A DNA stretch of 64,000 nucleotides from NCBI GenBank assembly GCA_021372585.1, contig JAJFUD010000019.1, positions 45,197 to 109,196 on the forward strand. The letters are read 5' to 3'. Made by a program: the position numbers and the translations under genes. Below the pieces are notes generated by a model, which made no database searches, was not told where the DNA came from, and saw only the letters and a list, made by a program, of their open reading frames with translations. This DNA is from a bacterium (GTDB lineage Bacteria; Caldisericota; Caldisericia; UBA6126). Positions 6,710 through 64,000 of the stretch are shown one piece after another (positions within the stretch are counted from its first letter, which is position 1; every line of letters begins with the position of its first letter).

Positions 6710-9330
6710 AAAAAATGGTGTACCAATTCCACGAAGGAACCAAAGAGATGAAAGCAATCTTGGGAGGCAAAGGAGCCGGACTATCCGAGATGGCCAGAAT
6801 GGGAATACCGGTTCCGCCCGGTTTTACGATCTCTGCCGAAGTATGTGAGTATTATTACCAGCATGAACAGCAATACCCCGAAGAGTTATGGGATGAAATC
6901 AAATCTCATCTTGCCCAGATGGAGAAAGATACCGGCAAAGCTTTCGGGAATCCTCAGAATCCGTTGTTAGTCTCCGTCAGATCCGGTGCGGCTGTCAGTA
7001 TGCCCGGCATGATGGACACGATTCTGAACCTTGGCCTGAATGACGATATTGTGGCAAAATGGTTATCCGGCACCGGCCATACTCGTTTTGTATATGATTC
7101 ATACCGACGTCTCCTGCAGATGTTCGGCAATGTGGTATATGAGATTGAGCACGCCCAGTTTGAAAAAGTATTGCACCAAGTGAAGACGGCGAAGGGGTAT
7201 ACCCTGGACAACGAACTGCAGATTGAAGACCTGAAACAAGTCATCGAAGGATACGAACAACTGTATGTCACCATCAAAGGGAAAGCTTTCCCGCAAGATC
7301 CGTGGGAACAGCTAACCGATGCCATCGGTGCGGTCATCAAGTCCTGGAATAACAACAGGGCGATTGTATACCGCCGTCTGAATAAAATTGATGGATTACT
7401 GGGCACGGCTGTGAATATCCAGAGCATGGTCTTTGGCAACCGGAACCACCAGTCGGGCACGGGGGTGTGTTTTACCCGAAACCCATCCACCGGCGAGAAA
7501 GTATTATACGGTGAATTTCTGATCAATGCACAGGGAGAAGATGTCGTCGCCGGCATCCGTACTCCCCAGAAAATATCCGAATTAAAATCCGTCATGCCGA
7601 CATGCTATGACCAATTACTCGCTACCTGTGAGAAACTGGAAAACCATTACCGCGACATGCAGGACATAGAATTTACGATTGAAGACAACCGGCTGTTTTT
7701 GTTGCAGACCAGATCCGGTAAGCGCACCGGGGCTGCTGCCGTGAAAGTAGCGGTTGATTTGTTTGAAGAAGACAGAATATCCAAAGAAGAGGCTTTAATC
7801 AGAGTCCAGCCAGATCAGCTGAACCAGTTATTACATCCCCGGTTTGATCCCGTAGAAAAGGAAAAGGTCCCTGTTTTGGCAAAAGGACTGCCGGCTTCTC
7901 CCGGCGCTGCCGTCGGTAAAGTAGTGTTTACCGCGCAGAGAGCGGAAGAAGAAGCCGCCAATCATGTTCCGGTGATCCTTGTCCGGGAAGAGACCTCTCC
8001 CGAAGACATTCGCGGAATGAACGTTGCAAACGGCATTCTCACTGCCAGGGGCGGAATGACTTCCCATGCGGCTGTAGTCGCAAGAGGGATGGGCAAATGC
8101 TGCGTATCGGGTGTGGATAGCATCGTGGTGGATGAAGAAAAAAGAGAATTTCGCACAAAATCCGGAACGGTAGTCAAAGAATTTGACACGATCAGTTTGG
8201 ACGGTACATCAGGAGAAGTATTTGCTCAGGCCATACCGACCATCACTCCGCACATGGGTGAGGATATGACAAAATTACTCGATTGGGCTGACAGCTATCG
8301 AAAATTGAAGATCAGGACCAATGCCGATACACCAAAGGATGCTGAACAAGCCAGAAAATTCGGAGCTGAGGGAATCGGTCTGTGCAGAACAGAGCATATG
8401 TTTTTTGAAGGAGACAGGATACAGGCAGTCAGAGAGATGATTCTTTCGGATACACTGGCCGGAAGGGAAAAAGCGTTAGCGAAGATACTCCCCATGCAAA
8501 GAGAAGATTTTATCGGTATTTTCAAAGCGATGAAAGGTTTCCCGGTCACGATTCGGTTGCTGGATCCGCCTTTGCACGAGTTTTTGCCGACAGATGAAGG
8601 AGATATCCAGGAATTGGCAACAGAACTTCATATTTCGGTAGATAAGGTGAAGGATAAAATACAATCCCTGAAAGAATTCAATCCAATGCTGGGTCATCGC
8701 GGGTGTCGCTTAGGCATCACCTTTCCCGAAATTACCATAATGCAAACACGTGCTATCATGGAAGCTGTCTGCTTGGTTTCAAAACAGGACCATGTGTCCA
8801 TCGTGCCGGAAATTATGGTACCGTTGGTTGGCTCTGAAAAAGAGCTTCAATCGCAAAAAACGGTCATTGATCTTACCGCTGCCAAGGTTTTTACCGAGCA
8901 GGGATTGACACTTCCCTATCTGGTCGGCACGATGATCGAAGTACCCCGTGCAGCCCTGACAGCTTATGAAATTGCTGACCAAGCCCAATTTTTCTCTTTT
9001 GGCACCAATGACCTGACCCAAATGACTTTTGGATTTTCCCGGGACGATGCCAATAAATTCCTGCCGTATTATGTAGAACACAAGATTTTACCCGAAGATC
9101 CTTTTATTTCCATCGATACCAAAGGAGTGGGAAGACTGATTAAAATAGCCTCTGAAGAAGGCAGACAGAGAAGGCCGGATTTAAAGATCGGCATCTGTGG
9201 AGAGCATGGAGGAGATCCCGATTCCATAGAGTTTTGTCATCAAGTCGGTTTAAGCTATGTCAGCTGTTCTCCGTTTCGAGTGCCTATCGCCAGGTTGGCT
9301 GCGGCAAGAGCGGCGATTCAGTATCCTTAA
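6706..9330 (+). CDS. ppdK: Pyruvate, phosphate dikinase
   Basis: [47 protein letters not shown], together with the central phospho-His domain (GGMTSHAAVVARGMGKCCVSG) and C-terminal PEP-utilising TIM barrel motifs. The product is 874 aa. Confidence 0.9.
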   Translation: MKKMVYQFHEGTKEMKAILGGKGAGLSEMARMGIPVPPGFTISAEVCEYYYQHEQQYPEELWDEIKSHLAQMEKDTGKAFGNPQNPLLVSVRSGAAVSMPGMMDTILNLGLNDDIVAKWLSGTGHTRFVYDSYRRLLQMFGNVVYEIEHAQFEKVLHQVKTAKGYTLDNELQIEDLKQVIEGYEQLYVTIKGKAFPQDPWEQLTDAIGAVIKSWNNNRAIVYRRLNKIDGLLGTAVNIQSMVFGNRNHQSGTGVCFTRNPSTGEKVLYGEFLINAQGEDVVAGIRTPQKISELKSVMPTCYDQLLATCEKLENHYRDMQDIEFTIEDNRLFLLQTRSGKRTGAAAVKVAVDLFEEDRISKEEALIRVQPDQLNQLLHPRFDPVEKEKVPVLAKGLPASPGAAVGKVVFTAQRAEEEAANHVPVILVREETSPEDIRGMNVANGILTARGGMTSHAAVVARGMGKCCVSGVDSIVVDEEKREFRTKSGTVVKEFDTISLDGTSGEVFAQAIPTITPHMGEDMTKLLDWADSYRKLKIRTNADTPKDAEQARKFGAEGIGLCRTEHMFFEGDRIQAVREMILSDTLAGREKALAKILPMQREDFIGIFKAMKGFPVTIRLLDPPLHEFLPTDEGDIQELATELHISVDKVKDKIQSLKEFNPMLGHRGCRLGITFPEITIMQTRAIMEAVCLVSKQDHVSIVPEIMVPLVGSEKELQSQKTVIDLTAAKVFTEQGLTLPYLVGTMIEVPRAALTAYEIADQAQFFSFGTNDLTQMTFGFSRDDANKFLPYYVEHKILPEDPFISIDTKGVGRLIKIASEEGRQRRPDLKIGICGEHGGDPDSIEFCHQVGLSYVSCSPFRVPIARLAAARAAIQYP

Positions 9331-53416: not shown

Positions 53417-55069
53417 TTATGAATTCTTCCTGCGAGAAGATCCCAATGCCATCAAAATTTGGGTCAATCCATACGACAAACCGTAAGAAAAAGCCAATAA
53501 GGCCGGCATCAGAATCCACAGGCTGAAATGGTGGAATTGGTTCTGTTGGACACCAAGAGGAGGCATCATAAAGAGATGGATGAAACCAAATCGGTTTACC
53601 CAGGTGGCTGTAAAAAGCAGCAAACAGATAGTGAAGGAGATGAATATCCCATTCAGGTCCAAACAGATCTCTTCATACGAGATATCAAACCAATATCCGG
53701 CCATTAATGTGAAGACGAGCACCAATACGGTGAGAATCGGTAAAATAAAGAGCAGTTGGCTTAATAAGATTCCCGGCAGTGTCAGGGAGGAAAATGCCGG
53801 CAAGCTTAATCTGGCAGGAAAAACATATTGTTCGAGTAGGACGTATACGGCAAAGAAGAAAACGCCAAATGTGTAAGAACGGTATCGGGCTAACCAATTA
53901 TAGAGCCAGACCAGTAGACTGAATAAGGCCAGTAAAGTGAATATCAGGCTGGGGATGACATTCACTCTTTTCTGTTGGTATAGATGGAAGCTGTTAAAAT
54001 CATCGATAATCATCTGGTATCTTCTCTCAAGTTCAACCAGATTGGCAGAATCGGTCGCATGAATCGTATCGTTGGCCTCTAAAAGATAACCGGCAATAAT
54101 CGCATCATCGAGCCGATACTGGTTTAAGTAAAAAACAGAAGAAAAAATGGTCTGGTCTGCATGATACATAAAGCGGTCCATGGTTTCGGTTTCTTTGAGG
54201 GGGAACCAGTTAAAAACAGGCTTTCCCAAACAGCCGACCGGAGGTGGTACGCCCCATGAATAGGCTAAAGTGGCCGTGACATCTTCTATCGGTTGATCGG
54301 GTTCGGGCGAAAATTGGATTTCCTTTCCGGTTTCACGGGGAAGAGAATTCCAGTAGACAAACGGGGAAGAAGAGGTGGTATTTCGTATCCAGGAGATCCC
54401 TTGAGTATTTGTATCGGGGAAGAAGCATAATAGCACTTGAGAAGTGATTTTCCCTTCCAGGGTTTTTGCTTGATAGGCAAGGATCCATTCCTTGATTTGC
54501 TCTTGGCTAAGCTGGTCTCTGTCTACATTGATATGCACAAAAGAGACTTGGTTGATTCCGGAGGGGATGCCTGTTTTTTCAATCTCTTCCAAAACATTGA
54601 CAGGAGTGTCCAGTGGAAAACCAGGTAGAGAAGAATAAACAGAGATGCCCATTTTATAATACCGGGCAAGGTGAAGCAGGTGATCCGTATTGCGGTAACC
54701 ATTCACGGTATGGACACTATTCAGACTCTCTTTTTGACCGGAGAGAAGCTGAAAAAGGAGATAGGTTTCATCTTGCGTGTTGGCATGGGTAAAGACTCCA
54801 CTGACAACTTCAGGTTTTATTTCCGGGAGCCATTGTTTTGCATGAGACATATCACTTTGTTTTAAACCTGTTATGCTGATAACCAAAGTATTAGAGACAA
54901 TCGGTTTCTTCGGAGTGGGACGGTTCCATGTTTTTTCAATTTCTTCCTGAGTTTGCAGTGGGACCGGATCACTTTGCAGCATCTGCACCTGTTGTTGGAA
55001 TAAGGAAAAACTAAATAATGCGATAGCAATCAATAAACCCGGTACAATAAACCACTTTACTCTTTTCAC
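53417..55069 (-). CDS. Hypothetical membrane protein with an N-terminal extracytoplasmic domain (about 330 aa) and a C-terminal polytopic region
   Basis: A signal or TM anchor, a large soluble domain, then 6-8 hydrophobic helices. It lies 7 nt upstream of the giant surface-protein gene and is probably co-transcribed. Confidence 0.4.
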   Translation of the reverse strand: MKRVKWFIVPGLLIAIALFSFSLFQQQVQMLQSDPVPLQTQEEIEKTWNRPTPKKPIVSNTLVISITGLKQSDMSHAKQWLPEIKPEVVSGVFTHANTQDETYLLFQLLSGQKESLNSVHTVNGYRNTDHLLHLARYYKMGISVYSSLPGFPLDTPVNVLEEIEKTGIPSGINQVSFVHINVDRDQLSQEQIKEWILAYQAKTLEGKITSQVLLCFFPDTNTQGISWIRNTTSSSPFVYWNSLPRETGKEIQFSPEPDQPIEDVTATLAYSWGVPPPVGCLGKPVFNWFPLKETETMDRFMYHADQTIFSSVFYLNQYRLDDAIIAGYLLEANDTIHATDSANLVELERRYQMIIDDFNSFHLYQQKRVNVIPSLIFTLLALFSLLVWLYNWLARYRSYTFGVFFFAVYVLLEQYVFPARLSLPAFSSLTLPGILLSQLLFILPILTVLVLVFTLMAGYWFDISYEEICLDLNGIFISFTICLLLFTATWVNRFGFIHLFMMPPLGVQQNQFHHFSLWILMPALLAFSYGLSYGLTQILMALGSSRRKNS

Positions 55070-55200: not shown

Positions 55201-55962
55201 TTGGCAGAAAAGAATTTATTGAAAGCAAAGCAGTTCGTCAAGCAATTGTTGCTAGATGAACTGAAAGATGCCCATATCCGGTCGAAAAACGTAAGTCCGG
55301 AGGTAGCTTTAATTCGGTCTGACAAAGCACTTTGTCTTGTGAAGCTGGTTGATGTGAACGATTCCTTAGATTCCCTGTTTCCGGAATTGGCCAAAAAAAT
55401 ACTTTGGAACAAATATGTCGTCCTGGAAAAAGATTATTTCCAAATTTACCTGGAGCAATTTGAACTACTTAAAAAGGAACAACCTATCAAGGGATCTGTG
55501 ATTTTTGTGACACGAACCGGGGAGACATATATGGTTTCTCCTTATGCACTGGTGGAATTCCAGGAGACGTACCATATGTTCTGTAAATCCGAAAACAGCT
55601 CTCTCCTTTATTTTCCTACTATTTTTCTTAATTCTGCGAACCTGCCGGAAAGACCGATAGACGAAATCCAAGCTCAGCAGAGGATTTCTATCATCTCTCA
55701 GATCAATGAGCTGGAAGAATCCGAAGAATGGATTGACCAGGAAGATTGGGAATTGGACGGGGAGGATGACAGTCTTTATTCAACCTTTTTTTCCAACCGC
55801 CCTTTTGCAGAGTATCCGAAAGAATTCTCCCCCCGTTTTTCCGGTTTAGAAGAGACTGATACGCGCGAATTAATGATGAATCTTTTGTTTGAGATGACAA
55901 AAAACCTGAAAGAGATCAATCAAGAAATGAAAAAAATAAACAAGTGGTTCAAGAAGAAATAA
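55201..55962 (+). CDS. Hypothetical cytoplasmic protein with an acidic C-terminus
   Basis: 253 aa. The acidic stretch is EESEEWIDQEDWELDGEDD. Its end overlaps the pth start by 19 nt. No recognised motifs. Confidence 0.4.
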   Translation: MAEKNLLKAKQFVKQLLLDELKDAHIRSKNVSPEVALIRSDKALCLVKLVDVNDSLDSLFPELAKKILWNKYVVLEKDYFQIYLEQFELLKKEQPIKGSVIFVTRTGETYMVSPYALVEFQETYHMFCKSENSSLLYFPTIFLNSANLPERPIDEIQAQQRISIISQINELEESEEWIDQEDWELDGEDDSLYSTFFSNRPFAEYPKEFSPRFSGLEETDTRELMMNLLFEMTKNLKEINQEMKKINKWFKKK

Positions 55963-56546
55963 ATTATGCTGTATTCGGGTTAGGCAATCCTGGCAAGGAG
56001 TATCTGACCTCCCGGCATAATATCGGATTCTGGGTAGTTGATTATTTGGAAAAGCAATACAAAACCAGCCAGAAACGCATAGAATGTTTTGCGGTTACTT
56101 GGCTGGCTGCCTTACCACCGGCACAACATGTCCTGTTCGTAAAGCCAGCCACTTTTATGAACTTATCCGGCAAAGCTGTCGGGCAGATCGTACAAAAATA
56201 TGCTCTCCCCCTTAACCGGATTTTAATCCTGCATGATGACTTGGACCTGCCGTTTCTTCAGATACGCATCAAAAACAGAGGGCAGAGTGGGGGGCACCGC
56301 GGGGTTGAATCGATCATTCAATCTTTGCATACCGATTTGTTTGCCCGGTTGAAGATCGGGATCGGCCGCCCCGGGATGTACGAAGATCCGGTAGAGTATG
56401 TTTTATCCTCTTTTTCAAAAAAGGAGCAACAAGAGATTATAAACCGGATGCCTGACCTGCGAGATGCGGTTGAAAGCTGGTTAGAGAGTGGTTTTCATCA
56501 CACAGCTAATCGGTTTAACCGAAAAAATACCGTTGACGATGAATAA
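55944..56546 (+). CDS. pth: Peptidyl-tRNA hydrolase
   Basis: FGLGNPGKEYLTSRHNIGF, catalytic His in SRHN, and ILHDDLDLP. Confidence 0.85.
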   Translation: MVQEEINYAVFGLGNPGKEYLTSRHNIGFWVVDYLEKQYKTSQKRIECFAVTWLAALPPAQHVLFVKPATFMNLSGKAVGQIVQKYALPLNRILILHDDLDLPFLQIRIKNRGQSGGHRGVESIIQSLHTDLFARLKIGIGRPGMYEDPVEYVLSSFSKKEQQEIINRMPDLRDAVESWLESGFHHTANRFNRKNTVDDE

Positions 56547-59500
56547 ACCTCTTCTCTCTTATTTTCAATCTTTATTTACTTCCACTCTTCCTTCTTCCTT
56601 TCCCCGGGAGCCGATTCATCTTTATAATGCCACCAATGCTGTCTCTTCTTTGTTTATCGCGCATGTTGCCACTCATCCATTCTCCTCTATGCTGATCATT
56701 GTACCGGGAGAGGGTGATTGTGAAAGGATTTATGCCAATCTGCACGACTTGCTTCCTCTGACATTACAATCCAAATTGTACATTTTCCCCGACGGTTCCC
56801 AGGTTCCGTATGAAAAAGTTTCTTTACCCCGGGAGGTTATCGGCGAGCAGATGCAAGTCCTGCATGCATTGCAGCAACCCGGACAGAAGATTGTCATTAC
56901 GACGATCCGTGCTGTGTTTCAACCGGTTCTTTCTCCGGAGGAACTGGAAAGAGCCACGATGAAAATAGCAGTCGGGGAAGAGATCTCTTTTACCGCCCTG
57001 ATGGAACAGCTGGAGAAATTCGGATACCGTAATGAAGTCGCCGTCGAAAGAGTGGGGGATATTCGTATCAAGGGCGGCCTTCTGGATATTTTTAGTCCCA
57101 CTTCGAATCAACCAGCCAGGATTGAATTCTTTGAGAACCAGATTCAGAGTATTCGTTTCTTTGATCCTGTTACCCAACTTAGCATTGAAAAAACCGAATC
57201 CTATTCGATCATTCCTTTTTCTCATTTTTTATACACCCGGGAGGCGATCCAACAGCTGGATAAAAAATTAACCGCCTATTTCCAAAAAAATCCGAATGAC
57301 CTCTCTGATATCATCCAAAAAGACCTCGTTGAAATCAAGCAGGGGATCTATTTCTCCGGTATTGAGCACTATCTGCCCTTTTCCCGTGAGGAAGAAAAAA
57401 TACTGACCGATTATTTTTCGGAAGATTCCTTCCTTTTTTTGGTGCAGCCGACTCTATTAGAAGAGGGAATCAAGCTTTTTCAAACAGAAGCTTATGAGAT
57501 CGTGGTGATGGAAAGAGAGAAGCATGAGGTCCTCTCGCTTCCCTGGGAGAAATATTTCCAGCGATCAAGAAAGAAGCTGGAAAGTTTTCCGAAAACCATT
57601 CGCTTAAGCTCCTCTCCCTTAAATAAGACCACTCCCCAGAAAATCGCTCTCCCGATCCACAGTATCGAGGGGCTTTCCACCGGGGATTATAAAAGCGTGA
57701 TCCAGCAGTATTCCGTCAAGAACCATCAGCTGATCATTTGCACGAAACAATATAAACGGGTGAAAGAGATTTTGACCCAGATAGGGCTCGAAGGGGAAAC
57801 CCACTCCATTGTTTTGGTAGATTCGTATCTGTCCGATGGTTTTCATTATCCTTCCCAAAAAGTGACTTTATTGACCGACAAAGAGCTGTTTGGGTGGAAA
57901 CGACCTCATAAGCCGGTCAGGAAATTCCGTGAAGGGATCCCGATCCAGTCGATCGAAGACCTGAAAATGGGGGATATACTGGTTCATTATAATTATGGTG
58001 TGGGCATCTACCGCGGATTAAAGGTCGTCAAAGACCTGGAAGGCAAAGAAAAGGAATTTGTATTATTGGAGTATGACCGCGGCGACATGTTGTATGTACC
58101 TCCTGAACGAATCAATGCCGTCAATAAGTACATCGGGGAAGCGGAGCATGTAAAATTAAATTCACTTGGATCCTCCGACTGGGAAAGAATTCGAGAAAAA
58201 GCGAAAAAAAGCGTACAAGAACTCGCAAAAGATCTGATCGCCCTCTATGCCCAACGCGAAATGGCGAAAGGGACTGCGTTTCATATGGATACACCTTGGC
58301 AGAAGGAGATGGAATCATCGTTTCCGTATGAAGAAACGCCTGATCAGCTGGTCGCGATCCAGGATGTGAAACAGGATATGGAATCCAGAAAAATCATGGA
58401 CAGAGTGGTCACTGGCGATGTTGGATACGGGAAAACAGAGGTAGCGATCCGTGCGTCGTTTAAAGCGATTATGGAAGGCTACCAGGTTGCTTTATTGGTG
58501 CCGACCACTATCCTGGCCAGTCAGCATTTTGAGACGTTTAAGGAACGGTTTGCCCCTTACCCGATCAACCTCCAGATCCTCTCCCGGTTAATCAGCGACA
58601 AGAAGAAAAAAGAGATCGTGAAAGGAGTGAAGGAGGGAAAAGTTGACCTGGTCATCGGTACGCACGCGATACTCTCCAAAGACCTGGTGTTTAAAAACCT
58701 GGGTTTATTGGTGATTGATGAGGAGCATAAATTCGGGGTTCGCCATAAAGAAAAAATACGGAAACTAAAAGAAAACGTCGATGTGCTAACCCTGACTGCA
58801 ACGCCCATCCCCAGAACATTATCCATGGCTATCTCCGGTATCAAGGAGATTTCCCGGATCGACACCTCTCCGGAAGGACGTAAACCGGTGAAAACTTATG
58901 TGATGCCTTTCGATGAGGAAGCACTCGTAAGCGCTATCCGTTTTGAAATCGCCCGGGATGGACAGGTATATTATGTCCATAACCGTATCAAGGATATTGA
59001 AAAAGTCAAAGAAAAATTAACGGCCCTTCTACCGGATATACGGATCGGAGTGGCTCATGGACAGATGAACGGAGAAGAGATTGATAATGTGATCACCTCC
59101 TTTTTGGAAGGGCAGATCCAGCTGCTTTTATGCACGACCATTATCGAGTCTGGAATCGATATACCCACTGTAAACACTATTTTAGTTGACGATGCGCATC
59201 GTTTGGGATTAGCACAGATGTATCAGTTGCGGGGGCGGGTTGGACGATCCAACCGAAAAGCCTATGCCTATTTCTTTTATCCGAAGGATCTGGCGATTAC
59301 AGAAACCGCAACTTCCAGGCTGGAAGTGATTAAGGAATTTGTCGAGTTAGGGTCAGGTCTGAAAATAGCCTTACGGGATCTTGAGATCAGAGGAGCCGGG
59401 AATTTCCTCGGATCCGAGCAATCCGGGCACCTCAGAGCGGTTGGATATCATCTGTATGTCCAACTTTTAAAAGAAGCAATGGACGAGATTAAATCGTCAC

Positions 59501-59952
59501 AGTCAACTGGACAAGAAGCGGAAGCAGTTCTCTTTCCGGAATTTCCGATTACCGGCTATATTCCCTCCGCCATGATTCGGGATGAAGGGGAACGGTTGGC
59601 TCTGTACCAGCAGTTAGTCTCTCTGCAATCCAAAAAAGAACTTCTGGCGATGGAAGACCAGATCCGTGATCGGTTTGGACCTCCTCCACCCGCTTTATCC
59701 GAGTTTTATAAAAACCTGGAACTTCGTATACTGGCTTTTGAAAAGGGATTGGACGCGGTGAAAACAGAAGAGAACCTGGTGGTATTTACGTTTAAGAAAG
59801 ATTCCCGCCGGTTCGACCTGAATGTTCATCACATTAGTAAGCTTGTGAATGAGTTCGGGAGCCGGATTCGATTTAAAGCGGAACAGATCCTTGTCCGAAA
59901 GGATGCTATCCCTTTGGATGATATTATCAGAGGAGTATTGCAATGCCTGTAG
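56539..59952 (+). CDS. mfd: Transcription-repair coupling factor
   Basis: UvrB-homology N-terminus, DRGDMLYVP, and the helicase motifs GDVGYGKTEVA and DEEH. The C-terminal TRCF domain is present. The start ATG at 56539 overlaps the pth stop (ATGAATAA). Confidence 0.9.
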   Translation: MNKPLLSYFQSLFTSTLPSSFPREPIHLYNATNAVSSLFIAHVATHPFSSMLIIVPGEGDCERIYANLHDLLPLTLQSKLYIFPDGSQVPYEKVSLPREVIGEQMQVLHALQQPGQKIVITTIRAVFQPVLSPEELERATMKIAVGEEISFTALMEQLEKFGYRNEVAVERVGDIRIKGGLLDIFSPTSNQPARIEFFENQIQSIRFFDPVTQLSIEKTESYSIIPFSHFLYTREAIQQLDKKLTAYFQKNPNDLSDIIQKDLVEIKQGIYFSGIEHYLPFSREEEKILTDYFSEDSFLFLVQPTLLEEGIKLFQTEAYEIVVMEREKHEVLSLPWEKYFQRSRKKLESFPKTIRLSSSPLNKTTPQKIALPIHSIEGLSTGDYKSVIQQYSVKNHQLIICTKQYKRVKEILTQIGLEGETHSIVLVDSYLSDGFHYPSQKVTLLTDKELFGWKRPHKPVRKFREGIPIQSIEDLKMGDILVHYNYGVGIYRGLKVVKDLEGKEKEFVLLEYDRGDMLYVPPERINAVNKYIGEAEHVKLNSLGSSDWERIREKAKKSVQELAKDLIALYAQREMAKGTAFHMDTPWQKEMESSFPYEETPDQLVAIQDVKQDMESRKIMDRVVTGDVGYGKTEVAIRASFKAIMEGYQVALLVPTTILASQHFETFKERFAPYPINLQILSRLISDKKKKEIVKGVKEGKVDLVIGTHAILSKDLVFKNLGLLVIDEEHKFGVRHKEKIRKLKENVDVLTLTATPIPRTLSMAISGIKEISRIDTSPEGRKPVKTYVMPFDEEALVSAIRFEIARDGQVYYVHNRIKDIEKVKEKLTALLPDIRIGVAHGQMNGEEIDNVITSFLEGQIQLLLCTTIIESGIDIPTVNTILVDDAHRLGLAQMYQLRGRVGRSNRKAYAYFFYPKDLAITETATSRLEVIKEFVELGSGLKIALRDLEIRGAGNFLGSEQSGHLRAVGYHLYVQLLKEAMDEIKSSQSTGQEAEAVLFPEFPITGYIPSAMIRDEGERLALYQQLVSLQSKKELLAMEDQIRDRFGPPPPALSEFYKNLELRILAFEKGLDAVKTEENLVVFTFKKDSRRFDLNVHHISKLVNEFGSRIRFKAEQILVRKDAIPLDDIIRGVLQCL

Positions 59953-61136
59953 ACTTTACATGGATAGAAAAACCTTATCTGGCGATTGGACGGTTTCCAT
60001 CACAAGAGGATTTGCATGAATTAGCGGTTCATTTTCGCATTTTAATGAATGTAACAGAAGATCCCTACCCGGTACCCCTTGAGGAGAATCTGTTTACAGA
60101 GTTTATCTCCCTTCCCGTCCGGGATATGTCCACCCCGACCTGGTCACAGCTTTTTCAGGTGCTTCGGTACTTTGCCAGCTATAAAAAGATGCAGCTGCCG
60201 GTATTTTTACATTGTCATGCCGGTTTAGGACGTGCCGGGTTTTTTGCTGCCCTGCATTGCATGATGGGAGGATGTACAGCCAAGGAAGCGATTGAGAAAG
60301 TGAGAACTTTACGCTGTGGTGCGATTGAAACGGATGAACAGCTGTACCGGCTCTATGAGATCGAACCGATCATGCCGGCTATTCTCCACTCACCTGAGCA
60401 GACCTGGTTTGAAGCGAATCATATGATTCATCTCTTACGAAAAAACTGCCCATGGGATCGTATACAGACTTATGAATCCCTTATTCATACGATTATAGAC
60501 GAGTCCTTTGAGGTGATCGAGGCCATCCGGAAGCAGGACATTGATTCGTTGGAGGAAGAGATCGGGGATATGATGATCCAGCCCCTGCTGGTTTCGGAAA
60601 TCGCCTTAGAGAGAGAGGAATTCTCTATTTATACTGCATTGGAAAAGATGATGGAAAAGTTGATCCGCCGTCATCCCCATGTGTTTGCACAAACCAAACA
60701 ACTGAGTCCTGATGCGGTAATCGATCAGTGGAACGGGATCAAACTTGGGGAACATAAGAAAGGGAACCAGGGAATCATTGACGATATCATGATGATCTCC
60801 CGGGAAGCTTCCGCTTACGGGTTTGATTGGGAAAAAGCGTCCGATATTGTGCTGAAAATCCGGGAAGAGGTTCAAGAGCTCTCCGAAACGATCCAGATTG
60901 AAAACAAACGGAGAATCGAAGAAGAAATGGGCGACCTGTTCTTTGCGGTGCTGAATCTTGCCAGGTTTTTAGAGATCGATCCGATCAAATCTCTGGAGCG
61001 AGGAAGACGCAAATTTGAATCCCGGTTCCGGATGGTGCAGAGGTTCATTCGGGAACAGGGAAAAGATCCGGCTGACCTTTCCCCTGCACAGCTGGATGAA
61101 TACTGGCGGGAAGCGAAAAAAATTCTGCAACGCTAA
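59943..61136 (+). CDS. mazG: Fusion protein: N-terminal dual-specificity/tyrosine phosphatase-like domain (HCHAGLGRAG CX5R loop) plus tandem MazG nucleoside-triphosphate pyrophosphohydrolase domains
   Basis: The N-terminal 150 aa carry VFLHCHAGLGRAGFFAA, the PTP P-loop. MazG motifs CPWDRIQTYESLIHTIIDESFEVIEAI, EEIGDMMIQ, RRHPHVF and EEMGDLFFAVLNLARFLEIDP are also present. The ATG overlaps the mfd stop. Confidence 0.7.
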   Translation: MPVDFTWIEKPYLAIGRFPSQEDLHELAVHFRILMNVTEDPYPVPLEENLFTEFISLPVRDMSTPTWSQLFQVLRYFASYKKMQLPVFLHCHAGLGRAGFFAALHCMMGGCTAKEAIEKVRTLRCGAIETDEQLYRLYEIEPIMPAILHSPEQTWFEANHMIHLLRKNCPWDRIQTYESLIHTIIDESFEVIEAIRKQDIDSLEEEIGDMMIQPLLVSEIALEREEFSIYTALEKMMEKLIRRHPHVFAQTKQLSPDAVIDQWNGIKLGEHKKGNQGIIDDIMMISREASAYGFDWEKASDIVLKIREEVQELSETIQIENKRRIEEEMGDLFFAVLNLARFLEIDPIKSLERGRRKFESRFRMVQRFIREQGKDPADLSPAQLDEYWREAKKILQR

Positions 61137-61238: not shown

Positions 61239-61267
61239 TTGATTATAAGCTACTCTCTCGGTATAAT
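61239..61267 (+). promoter_or_regulatory. Sigma-A-type promoter (TTGATT -17- TATAAT) upstream of the Fe-ADH gene
   Basis: ttgatt at 61239-44 and tataat at 61262-67, with an exact 17-nt spacer. The ATG at 61298 is preceded by aggag. Confidence 0.55.
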
Positions 61268-61297: not shown

Positions 61298-62464
61298 ATG
61301 GAAGATTTTATTTTTCAGAATACCACGAAGATCTATTTTGGAAAATACGTCCTACCGGAGCTCGGAAACGAAGTCGCCAAGAAAGCCCGGAAAGTCTTGT
61401 TAGTACTCGGTACCGGACAGGTAAAGCGTACCCGGGCTTATACAGATACGATGCAGTCTCTTCACGACCGACAAATACAAGTAGTGGAGTGGAATGGGAT
61501 TCCTCCGAATCCTCCTCTTTCCGCGATTAAACAAGCCATTGAACTGAGCAGGGCAGAGAGCGTTGAGGCAGTCGTTGCTTTAGGTGGCGGATCCGTTCTG
61601 GATGCAGCGAAAACGATCGCAGCCGGGCATCTTTTCCAGGGAGAAATCTGGGATTGCTTCGGACCGAAGCGAAAATGCAGGATTCTGCAAGCTCTTCCTG
61701 TCTTCTCTGTTCTGACGATATCCGCCACCGGCTCAGAGATGAATGGGACAGCGGTAGTCACCAATGACGAAACCCATGTGAAAGCCTCCTTGTATTCTGA
61801 AGCGATCTACCCTGCCGTCTCCTTTATCGATCCCTCCTACCAAGTCACTCTCTCAGAATCTATGACGAAATACGGGGCGGTAGATATTTTCTGCCACGTG
61901 ACAGAACAGTATTTTAACCAAAATACCCTCTCCGATGTCTCGGATGCGTTGAGTGAGGGGATCATGCGCACTGTACTTCAACGGACGAAACAAATATTGG
62001 CTGAGCCAACCGAGGTGGAGCCAAGAGCTCAATTGGCTTGGGCTGGGACGATGGCTTTGAATGGATTACCCGGTTTGGGTCGTGGAGGAGGGGATTTTTC
62101 CAGCCATCGAATCGGGCATGCGCTTTCCGCTCTCTACGATTTTCCTCATGGGCTCACCTTGGCAATCGTTTTGCCCGCCTGGATGCGTTATGTCTATAAA
62201 GAAGCGATTCCGCGTTTTGCCCAATTCGGACGGAATGTATTTCACTTGAAAGGATCAGACGCGGAAACAGCCTCCAAAAGCATCATTGCGTTACAACATT
62301 GGATCCACTCGCTCGGTATCTCTACCTCATTGGTAGACCAGGGGGTTCGTATCGATGCTCTTCAGGAGATTATCCGGAATGAGAGTATTCCGTATCCGTT
62401 AGGGAAGCTGAGAGTGCTAGAGCCAAATGATGTTGAAAATATCCTGCACTTGACAAATTACTAA
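61298..62464 (+). CDS. Iron-containing (group III) alcohol dehydrogenase
   Basis: GGGSVLDAAK is the Fe-ADH NAD(P) signature. The metal-binding His residues are in HRIGHALSALYDFPHG. 388 aa. Confidence 0.85.
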   Translation: MEDFIFQNTTKIYFGKYVLPELGNEVAKKARKVLLVLGTGQVKRTRAYTDTMQSLHDRQIQVVEWNGIPPNPPLSAIKQAIELSRAESVEAVVALGGGSVLDAAKTIAAGHLFQGEIWDCFGPKRKCRILQALPVFSVLTISATGSEMNGTAVVTNDETHVKASLYSEAIYPAVSFIDPSYQVTLSESMTKYGAVDIFCHVTEQYFNQNTLSDVSDALSEGIMRTVLQRTKQILAEPTEVEPRAQLAWAGTMALNGLPGLGRGGGDFSSHRIGHALSALYDFPHGLTLAIVLPAWMRYVYKEAIPRFAQFGRNVFHLKGSDAETASKSIIALQHWIHSLGISTSLVDQGVRIDALQEIIRNESIPYPLGKLRVLEPNDVENILHLTNY

Positions 62465-63845: not shown

Positions 63846-63876
63846 ATCATTATTTTTCTTCGCTAAAAAATCCTAT

Positions 63877-64000
63877 GGCAAAAAGAATACCCAAAGAACT
63901 TTATAAAACTGATACGGGCGATGGTGCTATCTTTCAGCCGTACGTTCTTCAGAAACCAAATTCGACCTTTACGGAATCATTTAAGATCCTGCGCACCAAC
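63877..64000 (+). CDS. 5' fragment of a BY-kinase (CapB/YwqD-like tyrosine-protein kinase), truncated by the window end
   Basis: MAKRIPKELYKTDTGDGAIFQPYVLQKPNSTFTESFKILRTN matches the N-terminal S-E-x-[YF]-R-x-[IL]-R-T-N signature of polysaccharide-biosynthesis tyrosine autokinases. Confidence 0.35.

Follow-up and report, generated by a model that had tools for sequence, protein, structure and literature searches.

What would a cysteine phosphatase do at the front of a nucleotide pyrophosphohydrolase encoded directly behind mfd? The question is raised by one gene in a 64,000-nucleotide stretch of Caldisericia DNA (contig JAJFUD010000019.1, positions 45,197 to 109,196; hereafter the window, to whose numbering coordinates refer unless a contig is named; L and P numbers denote contigs and protein clusters, respectively). 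A first-pass annotation of the sequence had described this gene as a dual-specificity-phosphatase-like domain followed by two MazG domains. The computational analysis reported here bears out a real single-gene fusion of a Cys phosphatase of the PTP (protein tyrosine phosphatase)/DSP (dual-specificity phosphatase) type to tandem MazG. The gene and its parts, in nucleotides of the window and amino acids (aa) of the product, are:

59943..61136, + strand: PTP-MazG fusion gene, 397 aa plus stop, ATG start (open reading frame (ORF) list, domain matches)
59943..60386, + strand: N-terminal Cys-phosphatase domain of the DUSP23/Tk-PTP/SsoPTP type, aa 1-148 (Pfam, PDB matches, Foldseek)
60387..60440, + strand: helical connector, aa 149-166, leading from helix alpha5 of the phosphatase to the first MazG domain
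60441..60707, + strand: first MazG domain, aa 167-255, with tetrad E187, E190, E206, D209; best Pfam MazG stretch 175-248
60813..61133, + strand: second MazG domain, aa 291-397, with tetrad E309, E312, E328, D331; PRA-PH matches aa 295-348

The Pfam models singled out for a check by the first-pass annotation all scored above their cut-offs, DSPc with 38.4 against 33.5, Y_phosphatase with 38.7 against 20.9, and MazG with 110 bits against 22, in two stretches. PTP-SAK matched aa 5-133 with 56.9 bits (cut-off 27, E 3e-15), and the PTP-NADK and Tc-R-P models also exceeded their cut-offs, from just above to well above. These last three families reportedly stem from a survey of the rhodanese-phosphatase superfamily by Burroughs and Aravind in 2023. 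The best PDB sequence matches of the N-terminal part were ShufPTP (4.5e-18) and Tk-PTP from Thermococcus kodakarensis (~1e-16), followed by SsoPTP and human DUSP23. An AlphaFold2 model built from 21 homologues (mean predicted local distance difference test score (pLDDT) 89.8, predicted template modelling score (pTM) 0.64) showed a beta/alpha domain at aa 1-148, the last helix of which continues into an all-helical remainder. In a Foldseek comparison of the model, the template modelling (TM) scores of this domain, normalised to the target, were 0.86 for ShufPTP, with a root-mean-square deviation (rmsd) of 1.6 Å, 0.78-0.84 for Tk-PTP and 0.86-0.87 for DUSP23/VHZ, with entries 9E9L, 4ERC and 2IMG at 0.86-0.87; over Tk-PTP, SsoPTP, the engineered ShufPTP and human DUSP23/VHZ together, TM ranged from 0.78 to 0.87 and rmsd from 1.6 to 3.5 Å. 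The superpositions on ShufPTP, Tk-PTP and DUSP23 included TM scores of 0.82-0.87 at rmsd 1.6-2.8 Å. Sequence identity to the domain was 30-32% for Tk-PTP and ShufPTP. Since three Pfam PTP/DSP models, the PDB matches and the modelled fold agree, the CX5R motif on which the first-pass annotation had relied is not coincidental. Judged by sequence and model, the domain is a DUSP23/Tk-PTP-type Cys phosphatase, apparently active.

The putative catalytic elements of this domain are:

60123..60125, + strand: codon of Asp61, general acid/base, aligning with Tk-PTP Asp63
60210..60233, + strand: P-loop HCHAGLGR, aa 90-97, containing Cys91 (nucleophile) and Arg97
60318..60341, + strand: GAIETDEQ loop, aa 126-133, in which Glu129 corresponds to Tk-PTP Glu132 (second general acid) and Gln133 to Tk-PTP Gln136

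Mutagenesis of Tk-PTP identified Cys93, Arg99, Asp63, Glu132 and Gln136 as its working residues (PMC5965843; reviewed in PMC13577060), and in pairwise alignment these five map to C91, R97, D61, E129 and Q133 of the fusion protein. The extended P-loop, VFLHCHAGLGRAG, spans aa 87-99, with the C91 codon at 60213-60215. Archaeal DUSPs and DUSP23 likewise combine an HCxxGxGR P-loop, a D-loop Asp and an ETxxQ loop with a second acid (E134/Q138 in DUSP23); they are, however, stand-alone proteins of ~150 aa, whereas the domain described here is bacterial and fused to MazG. To assess conservation, the window protein was aligned with 20 fusion homologues of 42-88% identity. H90, C91, G94, G96 and R97 were unchanged in 21/21 sequences, position 61 was Asp in all 20 homologues covering it, and G126, I128, E129, T130 and Q133 were invariant. 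Mean pairwise identity was 0.47 in the phosphatase domain versus 0.58-0.60 in the MazG domains; the former appears to evolve somewhat faster.

Two positions of the P-loop depart from the archaeal enzyme, Tk-PTP having Gly95 and Ser100 where the fusion has Ala93 and Ala98. Ala98 directly follows the P-loop Arg, where most PTPs have Ser/Thr, so that the HCX5R part of the PTP signature is present and its (S/T) part is not; in the family this position alternates between Ser and Ala, Ser being found in about half of the homologues. Ala at this place, as in the PRL/PTP4A phosphatases, slows turnover, and the PRL P-loop, HCVAGLGRAP, is nearly identical to that of the fusion. PRL structures were found among both the sequence and the fold matches, at weaker similarity (E ~1e-5) than archaeal DUSPs. 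PRLs are eukaryotic, prenylated, mostly slow or pseudo-phosphatases that bind CNNM proteins, and a partner of the CNNM type is not implied here. Ala93 reproduces the state of the Tk-PTP G95A mutant, which is more active than the wild type (PMC13577060).

The pairing of D61 with a backup acid at E129 is a signature that argues for hydrolysis of a phosphomonoester whose leaving group is poor, for instance a tyrosine, serine or sugar hydroxyl. This bears on the substrates proposed in the first-pass annotation. Along its lines, the phosphatase domain might be an RNA or nucleotide polyphosphatase acting on 5'-triphosphate RNA, on cap-like or polyphosphorylated nucleotides, or on (p)ppGpp. It is established that Cys-phosphatase RNA triphosphatases exist, and two circumstances point in the same direction, namely the title 'the Regulator of Nutritional Stress Response' given to E. 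coli MazG in a PDB entry and the linkage of the gene to a transcription-associated repair factor. To our knowledge, however, Cys-phosphatase RNA 5'-triphosphatases of the capping-enzyme, BVP and PIR1 types operate without a general acid, whereas Asp61 and Glu129 are both invariant in the fusion family. Moreover, capping enzymes, BVP and DUSP11 were absent from two tables of PDB sequence matches, one of the best 60 and one of all 43 at E <= 0.001, and from the best 50 fold matches. The domain was not assigned to the RNA 5'-triphosphatase class, given the invariant Asp61 and the lack of such enzymes in the match tables. We regard a polyphosphatase as very improbable; the substrates first put forward gained no support, a 5'-triphosphate or cap being less likely in view of the retained Asp61 and Glu129, and (p)ppGpp processing would be a guess.

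The C-terminal two thirds of the protein are a tandem MazG of the usual kind, its two metal sites intact, and the two MazG domains announced by the first-pass annotation are borne out by the two Pfam stretches, by the equivalog score and by the metal-binding tetrads. The NCBIfam MazG equivalog PRK09562 matched aa 161-393 with 231.8 (cut-off 208), TIGR00444 scored 203.7 (cut-off 148.3), and E. coli MazG (3CRA) aligned over aa 167-393 with E 2e-38. The latter was also the top Foldseek match of the whole model (E 1.6e-9), the high rmsd of this match arising from domain arrangement, and from aa 131 to the C-terminus the model consists solely of helices. Both E-x2-E-x15-E-x2-D tetrads are invariant in the 21 sequences and are spaced like the residues that bind Mg2+ in M. 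tuberculosis MazG, E119/E122/E138/D141 (PMC10014863). MazG proteins convert (deoxy)nucleoside triphosphates, (d)NTPs, into the monophosphates, (d)NMPs, and pyrophosphate (PPi) (PMC10014863, PMC3855555). By analogy with these homologues, the MazG half would cleave (d)NTPs, damaged ones included, to (d)NMP and PPi. E. coli MazG and M. tuberculosis MazG (Rv1021) resemble the fusion in their tandem MazG domains, conserved metal Glu/Asp and expected chemistry, and differ from it in that neither has a phosphatase P-loop, the N-terminal extra region of the M. tuberculosis protein being just 85 aa of alpha/beta structure. The E. coli protein lacks an N-terminal domain altogether, and its gene belongs to the mazEF operon.

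Because a fusion of this kind could also arise by the artefactual joining of two separate genes, the junction and the distribution of the protein were inspected. The model places helices at aa 131-148 and 151-168, with block pLDDT of 93-97 over the connector, and the connector aligns without gaps across the fusion family. Fusion proteins 100% identical to that of the window are encoded on independent contigs from JGI, ENA and NCBI, and the clusters of the family, which stem from assemblies of JGI, ENA, Logan and NCBI, align without a break through the connector. The possibility, allowed for in the first-pass annotation, of two genes set apart by a frameshift or sequencing error is contradicted by this single ORF in independent assemblies. 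Nothing was found to speak for an artefact; splits of the protein do occur, cluster P0150 having the second MazG as a separate overlapping ORF. Against an artefact stand identical or similar full-length ORFs across independent contigs and assemblers, the continuous alignment and the confident model of the connector. An assembly or frameshift artefact was ruled out on these grounds, and its residual probability is negligible.

How widespread the fusion is was surveyed in several ways. A word-index search of 5.8 billion protein clusters, the counts from which are lower bounds (its profile version missed P0146-P0150), yielded at least 21 clusters with both domains, the remaining matches being plain MazG proteins of ~255 aa or YabN-type proteins. 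When the N-terminal 159 aa were used as query, two stand-alone 180-aa phosphatases were obtained among 8 scored candidates. An exhaustive hidden Markov model search of 1.84 billion 50%-identity representatives returned 34,110 proteins at E <= 0.001; among the best 150 of these, about nine bacterial clusters (P0014, P0145-P0151, P0165) align over most of their length, and fusions with a very divergent MazG half could rank below those 150. The combination of PTP and MazG was confirmed with Pfam in P0145-P0150. A contig scan with generic MazG motifs from the family alignment retrieved 80 plain MazG loci, mostly from Bacteroidota, and no fusion. Taxonomy was taken from the NCBI names of cluster members: all those named beyond 'bacterium' are 'Caldisericia bacterium', except one partial Firmicutes/Bacillota-labelled sequence in P0150. 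The fusion is very rare, and its named copies are essentially from Caldisericia; it may also occur outside the phylum. Public annotation calls these proteins nucleoside triphosphate pyrophosphohydrolases of the MazG family or, wrongly, 'tetrapyrrole methylase family protein / MazG family protein'. A paper describing a PTP-MazG fusion was not found in the literature searched, which did not cover the survey of Burroughs & Aravind 2023 (lqad029); this agrees with the first-pass annotation, which had not recognised the fusion as a described one. Among the top matches of the family profile there was also a protein of Haliotis asinina (P0162, XP_067677077.1), of 603 aa, with four tandem PTP-SAK-type domains.

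Some members of the family are altered. In the split variant P0150, the PTP and first MazG domains lie on one ORF and the second MazG on an overlapping ORF of 128 aa (L093:6319-7155, L094:142-1334). This cluster comprises 23 members, the 13 listed at full length being of 278 aa, and the gene does not adjoin mfd; a programmed frameshift is possible. In other, more distant clusters the P-loop is degenerate: P0149 has YCSSGQDK, with loss of the Arg, and P0151 (FSDRSLAW) and P0165 (GNRKGVGR) have lost the Cys, P0151 still aligning end to end with the family profile. The lineage of P0151 and P0165, devoid of the P-loop Cys or of both Cys and Arg, looks like a pseudo-phosphatase version of the architecture. 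On contigs L089-L092 (genes 8001-9197 / 8001-9176) the gene order is prs-L25-pth-mfd-[PTP-like]-MazG, with a 4-nt overlap with mfd.

Retention of the domain in P0149, P0151 and P0165 after loss of the catalytic Arg or Cys would be expected if it served mainly as a non-catalytic or slow module for regulation, oligomerisation or docking, a role that the methylase-like domain may play in YabN. Such a module might sense a phosphorylated ligand, hold a long-lived phosphocysteine, or anchor MazG on Mfd or RNA polymerase. TP_methylase domains that are halved or degenerate are found in many MazG proteins, the M. tuberculosis protein carries its 85-aa alpha/beta N-terminal region (PMC10014863), and Ala98 is reminiscent of the PRL phosphatases, whose slow kinetics are established. 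Every catalytic residue is nevertheless invariant over 42-100% identity in the clade of the window protein itself. Such constancy would scarcely be expected unless catalysis were under selection, and we consider a mainly non-catalytic role improbable.

The fusion gene is tied to mfd by position. The features concerned are:

56488..59952, + strand: mfd (transcription-repair coupling factor), longest ORF; UvrB_inter, CarD_TRCF_RID, DEAD, Helicase_C and TRCF domains (Pfam, identical contig L081)
59930..59935, + strand: Shine-Dalgarno-like GAGGAG within the mfd 3' end, upstream of the fusion ATG by 7 nt
59943..59952, + strand: overlap of the mfd and fusion ORFs, 10 nt, read from the sequence as ATGCCTGTAG

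Gene callers place the start of mfd at ~56539 on identical contigs (1137 aa), the longest ORF beginning at 56488. The first-pass annotation had the fusion ATG overlapping the mfd stop codon. The two ORFs do overlap, by 10 nt; the ATG itself (59943-59945) lies within the last mfd codons and precedes the TAG (59950-59952). This overlap is compatible with the translational coupling that had been proposed. The same 10-nt geometry of start and stop is repeated on contigs L083-L088, in lineages whose proteins are 43-48% identical to that of the window, and there a purine-rich GGAG, GAGG or GGAAGG stands at the equivalent place before the fusion start. Elsewhere the overlap with mfd is of 4 nt (degenerate lineages), 11 nt (P0147) or 1 nt (P0146). 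At the mfd/fusion junction, no promoter- or terminator-like site exceeded the shuffle background on the + strand, and the fusion gene lies within the same predicted transcript region as mfd. In all eight full-length fusion lineages read, six with intact P-loop Cys and Arg and two degenerate, the fusion gene directly follows mfd with overlapping ORFs; pth is usually found upstream of the pair, and the flanking genes differ between lineages.

A MazG gene behind mfd is known from other bacteria. In Neobacillus niacini the order prs-ctc-pth-fin-mfd-spoVT-yabM-yabN is found, with yabN encoding TP_methylase plus MazG, which substantiates the comparison with Bacillus and with the methylase-like N-domain of YabN made in the first-pass annotation; an operon of mfd and mazG is also reported in M. 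tuberculosis (bioRxiv 10.1101/2020.02.10.941963), where mazG is co-transcribed with mfd, as is predicted for the fusion gene. The fusion resembles YabN in lying downstream of pth-mfd, in having an N-terminal alpha/beta enzyme-like domain of uncertain role, and in its tandem MazG, positions 192-486 of the NCBIfam YabN model aligning with fusion aa 113-393. It is not a member of that family: NF052436 scored 222.7 against a cut-off of 525, no PF00590 match was found in the fusion protein, and its gene abuts or overlaps mfd, with no spoVT and yabM in between. The fusion is the positional counterpart of YabN/MazG, in which the N-terminal third replaces the methylase-like domain of YabN by an intact DUSP23/Tk-PTP-type Cys phosphatase. 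Partners of MazG are also varied elsewhere, including NUDIX (N- or C-terminal), HATPase_c, and full or half TP_methylase domains (P0224, P0186, P0231, P0163, P0176, P0198). NUDIX-MazG, MazG-NUDIX and MazG-HATPase_c proteins resemble the fusion in that MazG is joined to another catalytic domain (with NUDIX, two nucleotide hydrolases are paired), and differ from it in that the fold and chemistry of the partner are other than those of a PTP. Half-length TP_methylase domains on MazG cannot be complete methylases, and N-terminal MazG partners are diverse and often degenerate. A function in anti-phage defence was rejected: the only PADLOC match was a stray Cas6b (E 0.005, 14 bits), and the context is housekeeping, with pth and mfd.

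Taken as a whole, the reading that we favour, with about even chances of being right, is that of one gene for a two-headed hydrolase, the Caldisericia counterpart of YabN and of M. tuberculosis MazG. By homology with characterized enzymes, Cys91 would attack a phosphomonoester to form a thiophosphate intermediate, Arg97 would hold the phosphate, and Asp61 and Glu129 would protonate the leaving group. The simplest candidate substrate is the (d)NMP released by MazG, another being a 2'/3'-phosphorylated nucleotide; phosphatase and MazG together could then carry an unwanted NTP through to the nucleoside, blocking re-phosphorylation. That the substrate is a nucleotide-derived phosphomonoester is a guess, to which we would give somewhat less than an even chance. 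Fusion partners usually act in one pathway. A nucleotide substrate is favoured because the covalent link to MazG has been kept across deep divergence, because MazG is fused elsewhere to NUDIX, another nucleotide hydrolase, because the best Pfam models (PTP-SAK, and PTP-NADK, described as 'DSP-PTPase fused to NAD+ kinase') belong to architectures centred on nucleotides, and because the closest relative that stands alone is encoded in a transporter operon. This relative (P0143, L098:5001-5543) is a protein of 180 aa with 43% identity over 83 aa and the motifs LPxRDMSTP, HCxAGLGR and GAIETxEQ; its gene is the last of an ABC-transporter operon (substrate-binding protein, ATPase and permease), a position that suggests a small-molecule substrate. 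One member of the P0143 cluster bears the JGI label 'ADP-ribosyl-[dinitrogen reductase] hydrolase'. An NMP, moreover, is a phosphomonoester whose leaving group is poor, and as such would suit an enzyme that has kept its general acid. This support for a nucleotide substrate is weak and circumstantial. A tentative extension, less likely than not, is that a nucleotide phosphomonoesterase and MazG might irreversibly turn non-canonical (d)NTPs into nucleosides and, co-produced with Mfd, form a mutation-avoidance module.

Several observations weigh against a nucleotide-processing enzyme. Tk-PTP, SsoPTP and DUSP23 have been assayed as phosphotyrosine/phosphoserine phosphatases (PMC5965843, PMC13577060), and fold similarity cannot separate protein from small-molecule substrates. 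Ala98 is more in keeping with a regulatory than with a bulk metabolic enzyme, and the domain would also have a non-catalytic value because P0149, P0151 and P0165 keep it without Cys or Arg. Finally, a tyrosine autokinase is encoded three genes downstream, with no other phosphatase nearby:

63876..64000, + strand: 5' end of the gene for a BY-type polysaccharide tyrosine autokinase, which runs off the window (full gene L081:13933-14682); a functional link to the fusion may or may not exist

The kinase was recognized by TIGR01007 (177 bits, cut-off 108), has the Walker A motif SSNAGEGKTT and ends in a C-terminal Tyr cluster, ESYYQYRYKSNYYSKK; on L081 its gene is followed by one for a Wzy_C protein. 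These data raise the possibility, absent from the first-pass annotation, that the N-terminal domain is a phosphoprotein phosphatase, acting on phosphotyrosine and possibly on Ser/Thr, with the BY-kinase as candidate substrate and MazG as an unrelated or co-regulated passenger. Such a role would match the phosphotyrosine and phosphoserine substrates of the nearest characterised homologues (PMC5965843, PMC13577060), the Tyr cluster of a kinase that starts at 63876, and the retained general acid, which suits Tyr/Ser leaving groups. Around the kinase on L081, neither a canonical cognate phosphatase nor a Wzz-like activator was found within 10 kb, nor was a low-molecular-weight PTP or a PHP phosphatase within ±10 kb, and the neighbourhood of Fe-alcohol dehydrogenase, SLH and BY-kinase genes is repeated on L086 and L088. 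The conserved linkage of the fusion gene is, however, with mfd and not with the kinase. No BY-kinase was found in the flanks of L083, L084, L095 and L097, and the three kinase-bearing lineages share overall synteny, hence they are not independent. A phosphoprotein substrate would, moreover, leave unexplained a covalent tie to MazG that persists over 30-47% sequence identity. We consider this reading the main rival, a serious one, though less likely than not.

Other features of the region were noted in passing. Directly upstream of pth, and overlapping it, there is an ORF of 253 aa (55201-55962, + strand) with no match to Pfam (identical gene) or NCBIfam. Unannotated genes of 255-257 aa occupy the equivalent place on L083 and L088, the likeness being one of size and position only, which suggests a conserved protein of unknown function in the pth-mfd cluster. 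Further upstream, a multi-pass membrane-like ORF of 550 aa (53417-55069, - strand), the identical gene of which has no Pfam match, is adjoined by a gene for a surface protein of 1836 aa with CarboxypepD_reg and Cu_amine_oxidN1 domains (L081:1-3455); on L086 and L088, a gene without Pfam match and then a giant gene are found at the equivalent place upstream of pth. Downstream of the fusion gene, no terminator-like hairpin was detected after 61136. A gap of 161 nt separates the fusion gene from the Fe-alcohol-dehydrogenase gene (61298-62464). It contains a good sigma-70-like promoter match (TTGATT-17-TATAAT, 10/12; 61239-61267, + strand), which suggests that the dehydrogenase gene is transcribed separately from mfd and PTP-MazG.

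The architecture is clean, rare and conserved, without amounting to a novel type of system: both halves are familiar, and their combination is new to the literature searched. If the domain turned out to be an ordinary protein phosphatase, the fusion would be merely a lineage-specific domain shuffle. TpbA is the sole characterised bacterial DUSP, and archaeal DUSPs lack known substrates (2025 review, PMC13577060), and the fusion offers a lead on the substrate of this phosphatase branch. It offers further leads on how nucleotide-pool sanitation is tied to transcription-coupled repair, and on why MazG linked to mfd so often begins with an enzyme-like domain, which in Bacillus resembles a methylase, in Mycobacterium is an alpha/beta stub and here is a phosphatase. 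If the nucleotide-processing role proved true, it would give a new biochemical role to a branch of phosphatases in which no physiological substrate is known for the archaeal enzymes, and would hint at the purpose of the N-terminal domains of YabN-type MazG proteins.

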